Positions 19,161-59,662 of a stretch of 64,000 nt of DNA are shown here, piece after piece. The DNA comes from Escherichia phage CJ20. The stretch lies in sequence record MT533174.1; one strand, 5' to 3'. Position numbers and translations under genes: made by a program. The notes below the pieces were generated by a model. The model was given only the letters and a program-made list of their open reading frames with translations, was not told where the DNA came from and made no database searches. Each line of letters begins with the position of its first letter. Within the stretch, counting starts at the first letter, position 1.

Positions 19161-19844
<684 letters not shown>

Positions 19845-19845
<1 letters not shown>

Positions 19846-19874
19846 TGTACAAATGAGTGTAGGTGCAGTATTAT
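19845..19874 (+). promoter_or_regulatory. early-promoter-like element (GTGTAC -35, TATTAT -10) inside an inverted repeat
   Basis: AGTAGTGTAC followed 18 bp later by TATTAT; the -10 sits in the palindrome GTGTAGG...CCTACAC. Confidence 0.4.
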
Positions 19875-19905
19875 GCTCCTACACCAACGAACAAACGGAG
19901 TTAAA

Positions 19906-20238
19906 ATGAACATAAAGACTTACAACGAGTTTTTAGCCGAATCCGCCATCAATGAGACCAAATCAATTGATGATAGTGAAGGCTCTCTGAAATTTGGTTT
20001 AACCAAAAATGCAGATGGTGTTTTCTTTCAGATTGGTAATGAACGTTTTCAAACGTCCAAATATTCCAAAGCTGCAGTTGAAGCTGTCCTGAAATCTGGT
20101 GGCAAGTGGAAAGGCAAAGAAGGTACTAAAGAAATTGGCATCGCTGTTGACGGTGGTATGGCTTATTTTAAAATTGGCGATGAACAATTTATTATGTCTG
20201 CTCGCGGACGTAAAGAACTGGCAAAACTTTATAAATAA
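19906..20238 (+). CDS. internal-protein-like small protein with capsid-targeting-type N-terminus (MNIKTYNEFLAES)
   Basis: N-terminus resembles the T4 internal protein targeting sequence MKTYQEFIAEA with Glu at the protease-site position; located at the T4 ipI locus next to 57B. Confidence 0.6.
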   Translation: MNIKTYNEFLAESAINETKSIDDSEGSLKFGLTKNADGVFFQIGNERFQTSKYSKAAVEAVLKSGGKWKGKEGTKEIGIAVDGGMAYFKIGDEQFIMSARGRKELAKLYK

Positions 20239-20246
20239 GGTTTCTT

Positions 20247-20519
20247 ATGAAAACTTTCAATGAATTTTTCAACGAGTCCCAACTGAATGAAGAAGTAAAA
20301 ATTAGTAAAGCAGTCAAAGCTATGATTGACAATATCAATCACCTGTACAGCATTGACTTGACTGACCATATAACAATTGGTAACAAACGCAACTTTTTCG
20401 CGTTTGACATCTCTGAACTTGACCAGAACCAAATTAATAACATTGAGCGTTTTGCCAATGACAAGGGTCTCCGCCATGAGACAGCTGGTTATAAAAAATA
20501 TGCAATTTATCTAAAATAG
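20247..20519 (+). CDS. internal-protein-like small protein (MKTFNEFFNES)
   Basis: Capsid-targeting-like N-terminus; tandem with neighbours. Confidence 0.6.
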   Translation: MKTFNEFFNESQLNEEVKISKAVKAMIDNINHLYSIDLTDHITIGNKRNFFAFDISELDQNQINNIERFANDKGLRHETAGYKKYAIYLK

Positions 20520-20527
20520 GATTTCAA

Positions 20528-20827
20528 ATGCAAACTTTTCATGAATTTTTGGTAGAAAACAATTACCTGGCGGAAGCAAAAACCTGGCCTCTGGGTCTTC
20601 AGAAGAAAAACACCTATAAATGGGTTGACTTCAAAGGTAAAGGCGACGCTGAAGACTTTGACCAGCTGCGTAAAAATGGTTATACCTTCCTTGACTCTAA
20701 CTATAACAAAATTACCTCTTTTAGTCAGAAGTCAAGCATTGCCTTCATTGAAACTGGTAAGAACTCTCCTAAAGATATTTCTGACGACTTCGCCGCTTAT
20801 GGTGTAATTCGTGGTTCAAAAATGTAA
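20528..20827 (+). CDS. internal-protein-like small protein (MQTFHEFLVEN)
   Basis: Capsid-targeting-like N-terminus; GDAEDF...NGY-F motif shared with the ORF at 34591. Confidence 0.55.
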   Translation: MQTFHEFLVENNYLAEAKTWPLGLQKKNTYKWVDFKGKGDAEDFDQLRKNGYTFLDSNYNKITSFSQKSSIAFIETGKNSPKDISDDFAAYGVIRGSKM

Positions 20828-20856
20828 TGTACATGATGGGATAGTTGCAGTATAAT
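20828..20856 (+). promoter_or_regulatory. early-promoter-like element with -10 inside the palindrome GGGATAGTTGCAGTATAATTATCCC
   Basis: TGTACA then 17 bp then TATAAT; palindromic -10 region; followed by the leader CCATCAACTACTGGAG. Confidence 0.45.
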
Positions 20857-20882
20857 TATCCCATCAACTACTGGAGCTACTA

Positions 20883-21161
20883 ATGAAAACTTATCAAGAA
20901 TTTATTAACGAATCAATTAGTCACCCGGATATGCTGGAAGACCTGAAAGGACATCTGATGGTTAAGGCCAAACCGGTTGATGGTGGCGCATTTGAGTTGT
21001 TTCTTGTTAAAGGCGAAAACGGTCCTGATAACAAGAAAGTTTCAGCAATGATGTTGACTAAAGGTTACAAAGTCAGTTCTTCCTGGAATGCTCCATTCAC
21101 TTACGCGGTAAGCCCTCGTGAACTGAAAAAAGTTAAAGCTGGACAATATACAAAAATTTAG
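20883..21161 (+). CDS. internal-protein-like small protein (MKTYQEFINES)
   Basis: Capsid-targeting-like N-terminus. Confidence 0.6.
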   Translation: MKTYQEFINESISHPDMLEDLKGHLMVKAKPVDGGAFELFLVKGENGPDNKKVSAMMLTKGYKVSSSWNAPFTYAVSPRELKKVKAGQYTKI

Positions 21162-21190
21162 TGTACGTGATGGGATAGTTGTAGTATGAT
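21161..21190 (+). promoter_or_regulatory. early-promoter-like element (GTGTAC, 18 bp, TATGAT)
   Basis: Same architecture as the 20828 element; followed by the leader CATCAACTACTGAGGAGAATAAAATG. Confidence 0.45.
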
Positions 21191-21218
21191 TATCTCATCA
21201 ACTACTGAGGAGAATAAA

Positions 21219-21404
21219 ATGAAACGTTGCGAATTAATTAGAAATGTTACTGCCCTTGTTGCTGTTACCACTTTTGGTTTTAGCATGTTTGCTGGCTTTA
21301 TGTTGAATATGCTTTCAACTTCTGAGAATATAATCTCTTTAGTAGTTGCATTTTTAATTGGTTCAATCTCTTTCGTTATGGATAAAATCTCTAAAGGTGA
21401 GTAA
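21219..21404 (+). CDS. small hydrophobic membrane protein
   Basis: 61 aa from the ATG after GAGGAGA; two hydrophobic segments. Confidence 0.5.
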   Translation: MKRCELIRNVTALVAVTTFGFSMFAGFMLNMLSTSENIISLVVAFLIGSISFVMDKISKGE

Positions 21405-22661: not shown

Positions 22662-22735
22662 GGCCCTGTAGCTCAATTGGTTAGAGCATCCGGCTCATAA
22701 CTGGCAGGTTTCCGGTTCAAGTCCGGATGGGGCCA
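22662..22735 (+). tRNA. tRNA with CAT anticodon (Met or Ile2-type)
   Basis: Manual fold: D-arm GCTC/GAGC, anticodon loop CTCATAA, T-arm TCCGG-TTCAAGT-CCGGA, 7-bp acceptor stem with two G-U pairs; T4 encodes a CAU-anticodon tRNA-Ile. Confidence 0.7.
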
Positions 22736-22737
22736 CC

Positions 22738-22814
22738 CGGGGTGTAGCTTAATTGTATAGAGCAACGGTCTTCTAAACCGTAGGTTGTGGGTTAGAATCC
22801 CGCCACCCCGACCA
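22738..22814 (+). tRNA. tRNA-Arg (TCT anticodon)
   Basis: Manual fold: acceptor CGGGGTG/CACCCCG, anticodon stem ACGGT/ACCGT with loop CTTCTAA, T-arm GTGGG-TTAGAAT-CCCGC, encoded CCA; T4 also encodes tRNA-Arg(UCU). Confidence 0.8.
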
Positions 22815-33435: not shown

Positions 33436-33738
33436 ATGAAAACGTATAAAGAATTTATCACCGAAGCGCGCGTAAGTGCAGGTAAATTAGAAGCCGCTGT
33501 AAATAAAAAGGCCCATTCATTTCATGATTTACCAGATAAAGACCGTAAGAAACTTGTAAGCCTTTATATTGACAAAGAGCGTATTCTAGCTCTCCCTGGC
33601 GCTAACGAAGGTAAACAGGCCAAGCCTTTGAATTCTGTCGAAAAGAAAATTGATAACTTTGCTTCTAAGTTCGGCATGTCTATGGATGACCTTCAGCAAG
33701 CGGCTATCGAAGCAGCTAAAGCAATTAAAGGTAAATAA
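33436..33738 (+). CDS. internal protein (ipII/ipIII-like) with capsid targeting sequence [11 protein letters not shown]
   Basis: 100 aa; targeting-type N-terminus; located between e and denV, where T4 has ipIII and ipII. Confidence 0.7.
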
Positions 33739-33740
33739 CA

Positions 33741-33769
33741 GTTTACTTCCACGATACGTGTGATATAAT
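33741..33769 (+). promoter_or_regulatory. early promoter (GTTTAC, 17 bp, TATAAT) upstream of denV
   Basis: Canonical -35/-10 spacing, followed by the hairpin GTTCTCCTAC...GGAGAAC and the denV ribosome-binding site. Confidence 0.5.
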
Positions 33770-33797
33770 GTTCTCCTACAAACATAGGAGAACAAAC

Positions 33798-34214
33798 ATG
33801 ACTCGCATTAATTTAACCCTGGTATCTGAACTCGCTGACCAACATCTTATGGCTGAATATCGTGAACTTCCTCGCGTGTTTGGTGCTGTTCGTAAGCATG
33901 TGCAAAATGGTAAAAAGGTGTCTGACTTTAAAATCCCATCATCTTTTCTTTTAGGGACTGGTCATGTCACCTTCTTTTATGATAAGCTTTTGTTCCTTAA
34001 AAACCGGCATCAAGAACTTATTGCGGAATGTTTAAAGCGAGGGTTTAACATAAAAGATATTTCTACCCAAGATTTAAATGATATTCCTGATGAATGGAAG
34101 AATGATTATCAACCATCAATCTGGTCAATTGAAATCAGTCAAGCCAGACTGAATGAGAAAATTTCTCAAAAGCCTACCTGGTACAAATACTATGGGAAAG
34201 CTGTGTACGCTTAA
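33798..34214 (+). CDS. denV: endonuclease V (pyrimidine dimer DNA glycosylase)
   Basis: 138 aa; near-identical to T4 DenV over most of its length ([35 protein letters not shown]..., [12 protein letters not shown]). Confidence 0.95.
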
Positions 34215-34262
34215 CTAAAAAGGTTGTATAATGATTTTATCAACCAAACAATGGAATATAAA

Positions 34263-34577
34263 ATGAAAACTTATCAAGAATTTATTACTGAATCTACCCA
34301 AAAACGTGTTGAAGGCGGTTATGTCTGGATTGAACAATTAACCCCACCAAGTGAAACGAGCACGGGTTCGTGGAAAATTACTGTTGATGGCCCTGGTGGA
34401 AAACGTAAGACTATTAAAGAAATTAAAGGCTATTATGATGAAGCCAAATCATGGGCTGGTAGTCATGTAATGCAGATTAAAATTGCAAACCCGGATAACG
34501 TTCATGCGGCAAAAGCATTCCGTCGCATTGGTAATAAACTTTATGATGCGTTTTTGCGTGATTTCCCTAAAGAGTAA
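34263..34577 (+). CDS. internal-protein-like protein (MKTYQEFITES)
   Basis: 104 aa from the ATG at 34263; targeting-type N-terminus. Confidence 0.6.
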   Translation: MKTYQEFITESTQKRVEGGYVWIEQLTPPSETSTGSWKITVDGPGGKRKTIKEIKGYYDEAKSWAGSHVMQIKIANPDNVHAAKAFRRIGNKLYDAFLRDFPKE

Positions 34578-34590
34578 TTAAAGAGACATT

Positions 34591-34854
34591 ATGAAAACTT
34601 ATCAAGAATTTATTACTGAATCTGCTAAAGCTCCTACCGGTGCTTTTAAAGTCCGCGCCTTCGCTGGTGATGCTGAAGACTTTGGCACCATGAAGCGCAA
34701 TGGTTATTCTTTCTTTGGTGGCGATGGTAAAGAAATTGTTACCTATGCAAAACGCCGCGAAATCGCATTCGTGGTTGCTGGTAAGAAAGTTGATGTTGAC
34801 GATATTGAATGGGATTTTGATACCTTTGGTATTGTTTCTGGCGGTAAAGCATAA
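34591..34854 (+). CDS. internal-protein-like protein (MKTYQEFITES)
   Basis: 87 aa; targeting-type N-terminus; paralogous to the ORF at 20528. Confidence 0.6.
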   Translation: MKTYQEFITESAKAPTGAFKVRAFAGDAEDFGTMKRNGYSFFGGDGKEIVTYAKRREIAFVVAGKKVDVDDIEWDFDTFGIVSGGKA

Positions 34855-34857
34855 CTG

Positions 34858-34888
34858 TTTACTTTATGATGGGATAATTATACACTAT
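34858..34888 (+). promoter_or_regulatory. early promoter-like (GTTTAC) with palindrome GGGATAATTATACACTATCCC
   Basis: Reverse-complement copy of the 24573 palindrome; followed by the leader CCATCAACTTGGAGCGAATAAATG. Confidence 0.45.
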
Positions 34889-34910
34889 CCCATCAACTTG
34901 GAGCGAATAA

Positions 34911-35210
34911 ATGAAAACTTATCAAGAATTTATTACTGAAGCCAAAGCTCCTAAAGCATTTCAAATTGGGGTTCAGGGTAATTTAGACCAACAATATGTT
35001 GATGCTATTGTAGCAAGCCTCGGCAAGCAGGGTGTACAAGTGGATTTGGTTGATTTTACTAAAGGTAATACTTTTAATATTGTTACATCTAAAGGTTCTT
35101 TAGCTAAAGTTAAAAAGGCCTTTGGTGTAGCACAAGCATACGAAATCGACCATTCTGAATTAGAAAATAAAGGTCGCCAGAACACAATTAAAGGCTCTGG
35201 TTCTTTTTAA
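34911..35210 (+). CDS. internal-protein-like protein (MKTYQEFITEA)
   Basis: 99 aa; targeting-type N-terminus. Confidence 0.6.
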   Translation: MKTYQEFITEAKAPKAFQIGVQGNLDQQYVDAIVASLGKQGVQVDLVDFTKGNTFNIVTSKGSLAKVKKAFGVAQAYEIDHSELENKGRQNTIKGSGSF

Positions 35211-56918: not shown

Positions 56919-57476
56919 ATGAACGAAATTAAATTAACCAAGAATAACTATGTAAATAATAAAGAGCTTTTGAAAGCTATTTCGGAGTGGAAACAGAAGC
57001 TGAATGCGAACACTGACCCGAACAAAATTATTCGCCAGAACGATGTTATTGGTCTGGCGATTATGCTTATAGCCGAAGGTCTTAGCAAACGTTTCAACTT
57101 CTCCGGATATACCCAATCCTGGAAGCAAGAAATGATTGCAGACGGAATTGAGGCCGCAATAAAAGGTCTTCACAACTTCGACGAAACAAAATACGATAAT
57201 CCACATGCTTACATAACAATGGCTTGCTTCAATGCTTTCGTTCAACGTATCAAAAAAGAACGTAAAGAAATGGCAAAGAAATATAGCTACTTCGTCCATA
57301 ACGTATACGATTCACGTGATGACGATATGGTGGCTCTGGCTGATGAAACATTTATCCAGGACATCTATGACAAAATGACACAGTACGAATCCTCCTTAGT
57401 TAAAGTGCCAGGGTCTGATAAGAGCGCCAAAGATAAAGAGGGTGATTTGGATTTTTTATATGGAACATCAATTTGA
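56919..57476 (+). CDS. 55: late sigma factor gp55
   Basis: 185 aa; near-identical to T4 gp55 through the centre ([58 protein letters not shown]). Confidence 0.95.
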
Positions 57477-57693
57477 TATTACCGATTTTTTAGATAAAAT
57501 CGAGGAAGACTTTACGGCTCTCCCATATTTCATTAAACTTTATCTGCGAGACATAAAAGGTCTTCCAATTGATATCGACCCTTTAAACGTCCGGAATCTG
57601 GAATTTACTTCACCGGATAATAACGTTGATTATCGTTATCATGTGGATAATGCTAATCTATATTTTACAATTGAGTTAACTCCCAAGGATTAA
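57460..57693 (+). CDS. hypothetical protein
   Basis: 77 aa from the ATG at 57460. Confidence 0.45.
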
Positions 57694-57694
57694 T

Positions 57695-58006
57695 ATGCAA
57701 GCTCCAGATATTTCTCAACTGACCGATAAGCAGATTGAAGAAGCACAGGAACGTCTCGAAGAAGCGAACGCACTCGAAGCAACCAGTCAAGCAGCGAAGA
57801 TTCTGAAAAAGAATGCTCGTGAAATTGCACGACTGAATAAGCATGCTCAAGGCGCAGTGCTGGAAAACAATTTTGAAGCATACAAATATGCTCTTGTTAA
57901 ACTGCGTGGGATTTACCGCCAACCCGTTACGGAAGACCTGATTAAGTTGATGTGGGATTCTACTCGCAAACAAATTTGGGAAATCGTAAATGGCATTAGT
58001 AAATAA
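57695..58006 (+). CDS. hypothetical helical protein
   Basis: 103-aa ORF. Confidence 0.5.
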   Translation: MQAPDISQLTDKQIEEAQERLEEANALEATSQAAKILKKNAREIARLNKHAQGAVLENNFEAYKYALVKLRGIYRQPVTEDLIKLMWDSTRKQIWEIVNGISK

Positions 58007-58190
58007 ACCTTTTAAACGGCTTCTTGTTGGAGCCGCTTTCAGACTTCGCTCATACGGTAATATCTGTATCAAGCAGACCGAAACCGAATACAAAATGATG
58101 GGCCAATATTCTGATGGTATTTTTAAGATTGAGCCTGTAGCCAAGGTTTGGGTCGATTCTCATCAACTTAAGAAATGGTGGCAGCGATGA
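57990..58190 (+). CDS. hypothetical protein
   Basis: 66-aa ORF. Confidence 0.45.
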   Translation: MALVNKPFKRLLVGAAFRLRSYGNICIKQTETEYKMMGQYSDGIFKIEPVAKVWVDSHQLKKWWQR

Positions 58191-58271
58191 ATATCATTTG
58201 CTTTGAAGACGAACACCCGGATTTTTAAGCTTATGAATGACGAATATGAAAAAGTTTAAGAGGCTATATGA

Positions 58272-58445
58272 ATGACGAATTCGACGGATTTTGATAAGAT
58301 TAAATCTGACAAAAATGAGATGATACTTCAATTTGAAGCCGCTCGCATTAAAGCAGAAAATGAAGGTACTATTACCTATAAGCCTATCAAGTTCAGGTCT
58401 TCTCACGAACCTCTGTACGGTGTATTAATTGGAAAGGAAGCCTAG
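58272..58445 (+). CDS. hypothetical small protein
   Basis: 57 aa; AAGAGG ribosome-binding site; followed by a terminator; not in the track because it is under 60 aa. Confidence 0.4.
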   Translation: MTNSTDFDKIKSDKNEMILQFEAARIKAENEGTITYKPIKFRSSHEPLYGVLIGKEA

Positions 58446-58458
58446 TGCTTCCTTTTTT
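58436..58458 (+). terminator. rho-independent terminator
   Basis: GGAAGC-CTAGT-GCTTCC followed by TTTTTT. Confidence 0.65.
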
Positions 58459-58502
58459 GCTTTATATTCGGGATGATAAAATGAACCAACTGAGGAGAAC
58501 AT

Positions 58503-58646
58503 ATGGAATTATTTTTAGGATATGTCGTGTTATTCATGGCATTCTACACATTCACACGAGCTTGTTGGATAGGATTCTTTTCCACTCCTGACGGGTTCAT
58601 TTCAATAATTTTATTTTGCACTGCGATAACGGCGCTTGGCTTATGA
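58503..58646 (+). CDS. small hydrophobic peptide upstream of gene 47
   Basis: 47 aa; GAGGAGA ribosome-binding site; stop overlaps the gp47 ATG. Confidence 0.35.
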   Translation: MELFLGYVVLFMAFYTFTRACWIGFFSTPDGFISIILFCTAITALGL

Positions 58647-59662
58647 AAATTTTAAATTTAGGTGATTGGCACTTAGGTGTCAAAGCTGACGACCCATGGG
58701 CTCAAAACATTCAACGCGATGGTATTTTACAGGCGATTGCATATTCCAAAGCGAATGGGATTAAAGTCTGGATTCAATATGGCGATATTTTTGACGTCCG
58801 TAAGGCCGTAACACATAAGACGATGGAATTCAGCCGTGAGATTATGGAACTCCTTCGTGAAGCAGGAATTACTATGCACACGATAGTCGGGAACCATGAC
58901 ATGAATCTGAAGAATAAGATTCATCCTAATGCTATCACTGAACTCCTGAATAAGTATGACCATGTTAAAATCTACGATAAGCCAACGACTGTTGATTTTG
59001 ACGGTTGTCAGATTGATATGATTCCATGGATGTGCGACGAGAACGCAACTGACATTCATCAACACATCAAAACTTCTGGGGCTGAATATTGCATCGGTCA
59101 CTGGGAATTAACCGGGTTTTATTTCTATAAAGGATTGAAATCCCATGGACTTGAGCCTGATTTCCTTAAGAAGTACAAGCAAGTTTGGTCTGGACACTTC
59201 CATACCATTTCAGAAGCTGCAAACGTTAAGTACATAGGAACACCATGGACATTAACAGCAGGTGATGAGAACGACCCACGCGGGTTCTGGGAATTTGATA
59301 CCGAAACCGAAGAGATGAAATTTATTCCGAATGAAACCACCTGGCATCGGAAGATTTTCTATCCAAACGAAACTATTAACTACGACGACTTCAAAGACTT
59401 ATCAGTCCGTGTTATTGTAGAAAAAGTCGATAAAGACCTGACCAAGTTCGAATCTGAATTAGAAAAGCGTGTACATGAATTGCGTGTTGTCAATAAGGTT
59501 GATAACAGTGTTGATACGACTGACTCCGAAGAAGAGTTAGACATAAAACGCTTAACTGATATGATGGCAGAATATATTGATGCATTACCTGACACCAATG
59601 AGAAAGAATCAAAAGCTCTTAAAGCATTGGCCAACAAATTATATCTTGAGGTGCAACCGTGA
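58643..59662 (+). CDS. 47: recombination endonuclease subunit gp47 (Mre11/SbcD-like)
   Basis: 339 aa from the ATG at 58643, the same as T4 gp47; metallophosphatase motifs LGDWHLG, GDIFD, GNHD. Confidence 0.9.
   Translation: MKILNLGDWHLGVKADDPWAQNIQRDGILQAIAYSKANGIKVWIQYGDIFDVRKAVTHKTMEFSREIMELLREAGITMHTIVGNHDMNLKNKIHPNAITELLNKYDHVKIYDKPTTVDFDGCQIDMIPWMCDENATDIHQHIKTSGAEYCIGHWELTGFYFYKGLKSHGLEPDFLKKYKQVWSGHFHTISEAANVKYIGTPWTLTAGDENDPRGFWEFDTETEEMKFIPNETTWHRKIFYPNETINYDDFKDLSVRVIVEKVDKDLTKFESELEKRVHELRVVNKVDNSVDTTDSEEELDIKRLTDMMAEYIDALPDTNEKESKALKALANKLYLEVQP

Follow-up and report, generated by a model that had tools for sequence, protein, structure and literature searches.

In bacteriophage T4, internal proteins (IPs) are loaded into the prohead core by an N-terminal capsid targeting sequence (CTS), for which the first 10 residues of IPIII are enough (PMC9026906). 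Positions 4 and 7 of the T4 CTS (Tyr4 and Phe7 in IPIII) control targeting, and positions 8 and 10 control processing by gp21, a protease that cleaves on the C-terminal side of the Glu in L/I-x-E (PMC9026906). The IPs have been described as diverse defence proteins with the CTS as their sole common part (PMC3012670). IPI* inhibits GmrS/GmrD (PMC3012670), and each of T4 Ip1-3 acts against its own GmrSD-type enzyme of the type IV restriction class, with no cross-protection by Ip2 and Ip3 (PMC12373910). When ip4-10, including Ip9, were set against 15 GmrSD groups, no reproducible inhibition was observed (PMC12373910). T-even phages have two IP loci, one from 57B to trna.4 and the other in the e/denV region, in which variable sets of unrelated bodies follow a conserved leader (Repoila 1994, cited by PMC3012670, PMC2839356 and PMC12373910). 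The papers that summarise this work also describe PeSL-like early promoters with a stem-loop that flank these loci, and more than 30 IP variants by 2007 (Comeau 2007).

The DNA analysed here is a 64,000-nucleotide stretch of the Escherichia phage CJ20 record MT533174.1, hereafter the window. An original prediction, made from the letters of this DNA, had placed four tandem small genes with capsid-targeting N-termini at the ipI locus. The four ORFs, designated A to D, were confirmed with their coordinates and + strand orientation, within 19906-21161 (Table 1). They are flanked by 57B and a trna.4 homologue, the borders of one of the two known IP loci, with homologues of the dNMP kinase gene (gene 1), 57A and 57B upstream and of trna.4/trna.3 downstream. 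T4 does have just one ipI gene in the interval from 57B to trna.4, as the prediction had assumed, and the product of that gene does inhibit a host restriction system, IPI* being the GmrS/GmrD inhibitor described above. Two tRNA genes were found at 22662-22814. Comparison of the window with its relatives by megablast revealed one collinear piece each in P896 (98.4% identity) and phage 212 (98.2%), followed by the Shigella phage SP18 (97.1%) and vB_EcoM-VR7 (95.9%). On this nucleotide identity, the window is that of a VR7/SP18-like Gaprivervirus.

Table 1. Positions of the genes and promoter elements of the two IP loci in the window
Feature	Position	Strand	Description
57B	19390-19845		Upstream flank of A-D
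Early promoter with embedded hairpin, upstream of A	19846-19892	+	-35 TGTACA 19846-19851; -10 TATTAT 19869-19874; stem 19854-19886; promoter scan
ORF A	19906-20238	+	110 aa; VR7ORF156c family, phrog_3966; CTS MNIKTYNEFLAE, then S
ORF B	20247-20519	+	90 aa; Ip9; phrog_7673 'internal head protein'; CTS MKTFNEFFNE, then S; body from about residue 19
ORF C	20528-20827	+	99 aa; VR7ORF154c / RB69 ORF125c family, phrog_2667 'internal head protein'; CTS MQTFHEFLVE, then N
Early promoter with hairpin, upstream of D	20828-20872	+	-35 TGTACA; spacer 17 nt; -10 TATAAT 20851-20856; stem 20834-20866; promoter scan
ORF D	20883-21161	+	92 aa; VR7ORF153c, phrog_15565; CTS MKTYQEFINE, then S; body ORFan
Third promoter-hairpin copy, ahead of trna.4 homologue	21162-21206	+	89% identical to 20817-20873; pattern/repeat search
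trna.4 homologue	about 21220-21404		Downstream flank of A-D
IPII orthologue	33436-33738	+	Second locus; body 96% identical to T4 IPII
Ip10	34263-34577	+	Second locus; CTS gene, downstream of denV
ORF127c family	34591-34854	+	Second locus; CTS gene, downstream of denV; paralogue of C
Ip7	34911-35210	+	Second locus; CTS gene, downstream of denV

Six-frame translation of the window (64 kb) gave eight occurrences of the motif [KQ]T[YF]xEF[ILFV]xE, compared with 0.0009 expected from amino-acid frequencies, and the motif was absent from all of 200 shuffles. Every one of the eight occurrences was the start of a + strand ORF of 87-110 aa, with four located in 19906-21161 and four in the second locus (33436-35210). 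The presence of a CTS at four neighbouring ORF starts was confirmed as being far beyond chance. Ip10, the ORF127c homologue and Ip7, all at the second locus, have identical CTS codons (30/30 nt).

The N-termini of A-D were correctly read by the prediction as MNIKTYNEFLAES, MKTFNEFFNES, MQTFHEFLVEN and MKTYQEFINES. Its further statement that Glu stands at position 10 held for B, C and D, in which the leader runs from Met1, but not for A, in which the leader runs from residue 3 and the Glu is residue 12. This 2-residue N-terminal extension of A reflects a change of the ancestral ATG to ATA, with the start at an ATG two codons upstream that has a GGAG Shine-Dalgarno sequence. Aromatic residues were found in register at CTS positions 4 and 7 in all four proteins (Y/F in A and D, F/F in B and C), and T4 IPI also has Phe4. 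Matches to a gp21-type L/I-x-E sequence at CTS positions 8-10 were present in A (LAE), C (LVE) and D (INE), while B has FNE there and a canonical LNE at 13-15. The gp21-type sites of A are LAE12 and INE17, and C has a second one, LAE16. B carries Phe at CTS position 8 rather than Ile/Leu, and Ip9 elsewhere starts with the canonical MKTYQEFIxEA. Thus, targeting or cleavage is less certain for A, with its two extra residues, and for B, with its Phe8. The mature bodies are predicted to be about 8-10.7 kDa, or 9.0-10.7 kDa with cleavage at the first site.

The prediction had also named MKTYQEFIAE as the T4 sequence that directs internal proteins into the prohead and is removed by gp21. Its account of targeting and processing was correct for T4, but this is the tag of IPII and IPIII and not of IPI, which starts with MKTFKEFTSTTTPVSTITE, a 19-residue variant; residue 20 is the first in the solved structure of IPI* (2JUB). 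Alignment with T4 IPI, IPII, IPIII and Alt, which the prediction had proposed as a check, demonstrated a tag shared with the IPII/IPIII type, but the N-terminus of Alt (MELITELFDE) has no similarity to the CTS.

The divergence of the bodies was borne out. Beyond the tag, they are unrelated to one another and to T4 IPI, IPII and IPIII, the exceptions being C, whose paralogue in the second locus (34591-34854) has 38% identity to it, and the IPII orthologue at 33436. Searches of A-D against Pfam, NCBIfam and PDB sequences yielded nothing meaningful. No match to IPI was found for the bodies of A-D; PDB sequence searches with A-D did not recover 2JUB, which the T4 IPI control retrieved, and the matches listed in fold searches with the models of A and B did not include 2JUB. 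The possibility that A is a diverged IPI was rejected, as BLASTP against IPI aligned the tag alone. The second check proposed by the prediction, a search of the bodies against known anti-restriction proteins, had a negative outcome, with no A-D body resembling one in these searches.

B is Ip9 as judged by protein identity: it has 79% identity, along 100% of its length, to Ip9 of RB15 (Q38376), the protein named in the original survey, and 98.9% identity to the VR7 gene annotated as ip9. The VR7 annotation describes C as an internal head protein that resembles RB69 ORF125c, and A (ORF156c) and D (ORF153c) as hypothetical. The PHROGs families of B and C are likewise designated 'internal head protein', and those of A and D are of unknown function. 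A and D have no Ip name and are 'hypothetical' in VR7, VR26, phage 212 and the tblastn matches; the sole exception seen was phage EAWsc9, in which A is labelled 'profilin'. The literature searched yielded neither virion proteomics of a Gaprivervirus nor usable studies of Ip7, Ip9 or Ip10 by name.

Structure prediction was informative for A. Its body contains an internal duplication (E 5e-5), and the AlphaFold model (pLDDT 78.7, pTM 0.65, 11 sequences) has two modules of four strands plus a helix, which in tandem superpose on MRP1/2, Pur-alpha and Whirly proteins. A is predicted from this model to have a Whirly/PUR-like fold, and it might bind or mimic nucleic acid rather than cap an enzyme. 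The model of Ip9 is a generic alpha/beta sandwich with uninformative neighbours.

D forms a single 90% cluster among 5.8 billion proteins by word-indexed search. The phage records with D number 17, all of them Gaprivervirus-like, and identity among them is at least 97.8%. An exhaustive phmmer search of 1.84 billion representatives returned three extra matches, which were judged spurious as remote homologues: two were inspected and are long repetitive proteins with summed short stretches, and the third is weak (E 6e-4) and lies in a 2925-aa protein. Within these searches D is an ORFan. The exact sequence of the locus and its gene order are already in GenBank; A-B-C-D is the order in P896, phage 212, PSD2001 and fPSFA.

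Three promoter elements of the form TGTAC(A/G), 17 nt, TA..AT were found at the locus (19846, 20828 and 21162), each with a hairpin spanning the spacer and the -10 box. The folding energies were -16.5, -19.5 and -16.7 kcal/mol in order, with z of -3.6 to -5.4. The second and third elements are copies of a 57-nt direct repeat. The stem bases of the hairpin at A (z -3.7) differ from those of the other two copies, with pairing kept. A, B and C are separated by 8-nt gaps and have the first promoter in common; the second belongs to D and the third to trna.4. The promoters evident at A-D are of the early type only. A candidate late promoter at 20230, an exact TATAAATA just upstream of B, was rejected, as there were five such sites in the window compared with 5.8 expected. 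The idea that the promoter-hairpin repeats are an IP-specific device was also discarded, since related elements were found at 34204, 37003, 41152, 45047 and 54595. Thus, the promoter-hairpin elements are a general early-promoter type of this phage.

The relatives revealed how the cassettes are exchanged. In VR7 and VR20, ip6 is added after D, and in VR26, ip5 and ip6 replace C and D. VR7 is collinear with the window through the third promoter-hairpin and then carries ip6, in a unit of 290 bp with a copy of the element on either side, where the window has one copy. VR26 is collinear to window position 20557, where the tenth CTS codon of C ends, and the ip5 body follows. The promoter and CTS of D are 89% identical to the promoter and CTS of ip6. 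Thus, the breakpoints in VR7 and VR26 identify the promoter-hairpin repeats and the CTS codons as the exchange joints.

The families of A and B extend beyond this locus. A homologues were found in five other Tevenvirinae genera, in either IP locus, and all start with MKTYxEF(L/I)xE(S/A); that of Edwardsiella phage PEi20 lies in the 57B-trna.4 locus, next to ipI, and that of Salmonella phage STP4-a in the e/denV locus. Untagged homologues of the Ip9 body (residue 19 or so onward), 50-51% identical, were found in Kagunavirus JSSK01 and Seuratvirus SHIN8, which are siphoviruses without a T4-type head core or IP system. In JSSK01 the homologue is the first gene of a small early operon. These sequence matches support the CTS being a separable module, in keeping with a tag plus effector, and suggest that the Ip9 body has a function independent of packaging.

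Collectively, these data make it probable that A-D are the ipI-side polymorphic IP locus of a VR7/SP18-like phage, comprising four packaged and ejected CTS cassettes. Each consists of a CTS of about 10 residues fused to an unrelated body of 80-100 residues. By analogy with T4, the tag would bind the gp22 scaffolding core and thereby bring the proteins into the prohead; gp21 would then cut behind the Glu of L/I-x-E and free the mature bodies in the DNA-filled head, from which they would leave together with the DNA as infection begins. Relatives encode gp21, gp22, gp67, gp68 and inh; the protease and core genes fall outside the 64-kb window and are present in VR7, whose A-D locus is 96% identical. 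Packaging, processing and ejection of A-D are well-founded predictions from T4. More tentatively, as for T4 Ip1-3, each body may neutralise one specific host defence protein before phage genes are expressed, with the locus turning over by recombination as host defences change.

The known targets of such proteins may differ in this genus. Gapriverviruses are reported to be without hmC transferase (dCMP hydroxymethylase), with denA, denB, alc and dCTPase kept, and the two papers concerned (PMC8056088, PMC12115623) both suggest an unknown base in these phages. In the VR7 annotation, gene 42, b-gt and a-gt are absent from their T4 slots, and the window has no ORF of a-gt size from gene 55 to gene 47. 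Given the reported lack of hmC and the absence of glucosyltransferase genes from their T4 slots in VR7, the GmrSD targets may not apply: enzymes dependent on glucosyl-hmC may be irrelevant for this phage, and its host enzymes may differ from those of T4. Since eight CTS-tagged proteins are kept in a phage of a genus in which the hmC gene is reportedly absent, the targets may lie beyond GmrSD. It is possible, but in our estimate doubtful, that some tagged proteins, such as D or A, are aimed beyond the glucosyl-hmC-dependent GmrSD enzymes. The alternative targets may be restriction enzymes that recognise the base suggested for Gapriverviruses, or non-nuclease defences.

A purely physical role for packaged A-D was considered, in which they serve as basic counter-ions or spacers for condensed DNA and aid packaging or ejection with no host target. 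The predicted pI of mature A, C and D is 9.1-9.6, about 1000 IP molecules are present in a T4 head, with lysines that contact the phosphates of the DNA (PMC3012670), and the predicted Whirly/PUR-like fold of A is typical of nucleic-acid binders. However, B is neutral (pI 6.8), and generic charge would not select unrelated, fast-swapping bodies. Further, all three T4 IPs have specific GmrSD targets, and siphoviruses, which lack an IP system, keep the Ip9 body as an early gene on its own. We therefore regard a physical role as unlikely. We assign the same low probability to the possibility that at least one of A-D, with A and B the likeliest, has lost its targeting or processing and acts as an ordinary early cytoplasmic accessory protein, with its CTS-like codons persisting mainly as recombination homology. 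The extension that A acquired after loss of its ancestral ATG, the FNE at positions 8-10 of B in place of the canonical start of Ip9 in other phages, the sighting of early promoters alone and the use of the CTS codons as a recombination joint are all in keeping with this reading. Nevertheless, the aromatic residues at positions 4 and 7 are kept in register in all four proteins, a canonical L/I-x-E lies among the first 17 residues of both A (LAE12, INE17) and B (LNE15), and the leader of T4 IPI is itself longer, at 19 residues.

That A-D are chance frames or decaying pseudogenes is scarcely credible. This reading draws on D, which has no homologue outside its own cluster, but it is opposed by eight motif matches where about 0.001 were expected, by ORFs that are intact in 17-172 phage records, by correctly placed Shine-Dalgarno sequences and promoters, and by family alignments of A and B with conserved cores. 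A polymorphic locus of packaged, ejected IPs remains the preferred reading of A-D.

By the T4 analogy, injected IPs would act before phage gene expression and so form a first-line counter-defence that helps to set host range, a role that matters for choosing therapeutic T-even phages. The suggestion of the original prediction that A-D are an expanded set of ejected and possibly anti-defence proteins agrees with the published view of a variable set of injected, probably anti-defence proteins in T-even phages and is already known (Repoila 1994, as cited above; Rao and Black 2010; Silas 2025). The existence of such proteins, their tag, the variability of their loci and their anti-restriction role have all been published, and the window adds no new principle. 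The new elements are minor: A and D as candidate IPs, the mapped swap joints, the untagged Ip9 body in siphoviruses and the prediction of a Whirly/PUR-like fold for A. Together, A, C, D and the divergent Ip9 provide a candidate list for targets beyond GmrSD.

Among known systems, A-D resemble T4 IPI, IPII and IPIII in having an MKT(Y/F)xEF-type CTS that ends, except in B, in a gp21-type L/I-x-E, in their small, mostly basic bodies and in the two loci that both phages have in common. They differ in that their bodies have no sequence similarity to those of T4 and in the presence of four genes where T4 has one; moreover, the targets of the T4 Ips attack hmC-modified DNA, whereas the genus of this phage is reported to be without the hmC pathway. 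The polymorphic loci of Repoila, with Ip4-Ip10, represent the same phenomenon, B being Ip9 and the second locus holding Ip10 and Ip7, although A and D have no Ip name. The PeSL of RB49 and phi1 (Arbiol et al. 2010) are similar in placing a promoter with a hairpin at cassette borders, where it offers homology for insertion, deletion or replacement. However, the T-even IP elements are analogues and not homologues of PeSL by the statement of those authors, with T4-type early promoters and weaker, AT-richer stems, and at the locus of A-D the CTS codons are a joint as well. The ejection proteins of phiKZ and SPN3US are likewise head-internal, targeted by a propeptide and cut after Glu by a gp21-like protease, but their motif is S/A-x-E, they are much larger and they have no sequence in common with A-D. 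The ipI locus of VR7, SP18 and P896 is a further close counterpart, with 96-98% nucleotide identity.

The codon of ORF A, the first of the four tandem genes at the ipI locus, that aligns with the start methionine of all homologues is ATA. The start of ORF A was placed at the ATG two codons upstream of this ATA, at position 19906, which has GGAG 6 nt before it. The annotation of the close relative VR7 gives a longer ORF A, starting at the ATG that matches window position 19873. An mRNA started at the early promoter would not include the ATG at 19873, since this codon overlaps that promoter's -10 box.

Further early-promoter elements similar to those of the internal-protein cassettes were observed at 34204, 37003, 41152, 45047 and 54595. 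Three of these fit the pattern TGTAC(A/G)-17 nt-TA..AT, and several have the segment TATCCCATCAAC in common. This type of early-promoter element is genome-wide and not specific to internal-protein genes. An exact T4 late-promoter consensus, TATAAATA, was found at 20230-20237, overlapping the ORF A stop codon and 10 nt ahead of the start of ORF B (Ip9). Sites with the late-promoter consensus numbered 5 in the window, compared with 5.8 expected by chance.

In phage EAWsc9 (PQ341120.1, 145964-146882), the homologue of ORF A is named "profilin" and that of ORF C, a member of the "internal head protein" family, "homing endonuclease." The searches in this analysis gave no support for either name, and both look like misannotations. 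Stand-alone homologues of the Ip9 body (ORF B residues ~19-90), 50-51% identical and devoid of the N-terminal capsid targeting sequence (CTS), were detected in siphoviruses of two unrelated genera, Kagunavirus (JSSK01) and Seuratvirus (SHIN8). The JSSK01 homologue opens a small early operon, alongside an HTH gene and a helicase-primase. In the SHIN8 record the copy bears the name "internal head protein," probably through annotation transfer.

No ORF of alpha-glucosyltransferase size was found between genes 55 and 47 (window 56919-59662), and neither gene 42 nor b-gt was found in its T4 position in VR7 (record 24.3-35.7 kb). Gapriverviruses are reported to lack the hmC transferase but to have kept denA, denB, alc and dCTPase, and an unidentified DNA base has been suggested for them (PMC8056088, PMC12115623).

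Coordinates of genes at the second internal-protein locus and of untagged Ip9-body homologues
Feature	Genome	Coordinates	Position
IPII orthologue	CJ20 window	33436-33738	between e and denV
Ip10	CJ20 window	34263-34577	after denV
ORF C paralogue	CJ20 window	34591-34854	after Ip10
Ip7	CJ20 window	34911-35210	last of the set
Untagged Ip9-body homologue	Kagunavirus JSSK01	2507-2725	
Untagged Ip9-body homologue	Seuratvirus SHIN8	2492-2716	

A second internal-protein locus was observed on both sides of denV (window 33436-35210). The ten CTS codons of Ip10, the ORF C paralogue and Ip7 (34263-34292, 34591-34620 and 34911-34940) are the same at 30/30 nt, whereas those of ORFs A, B and C at the ipI locus have diverged. 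Such a pattern would fit recombination or gene conversion having occurred recently at the second locus. Since VR7 has no IPII gene at the site where the window has one, this locus is polymorphic as well.
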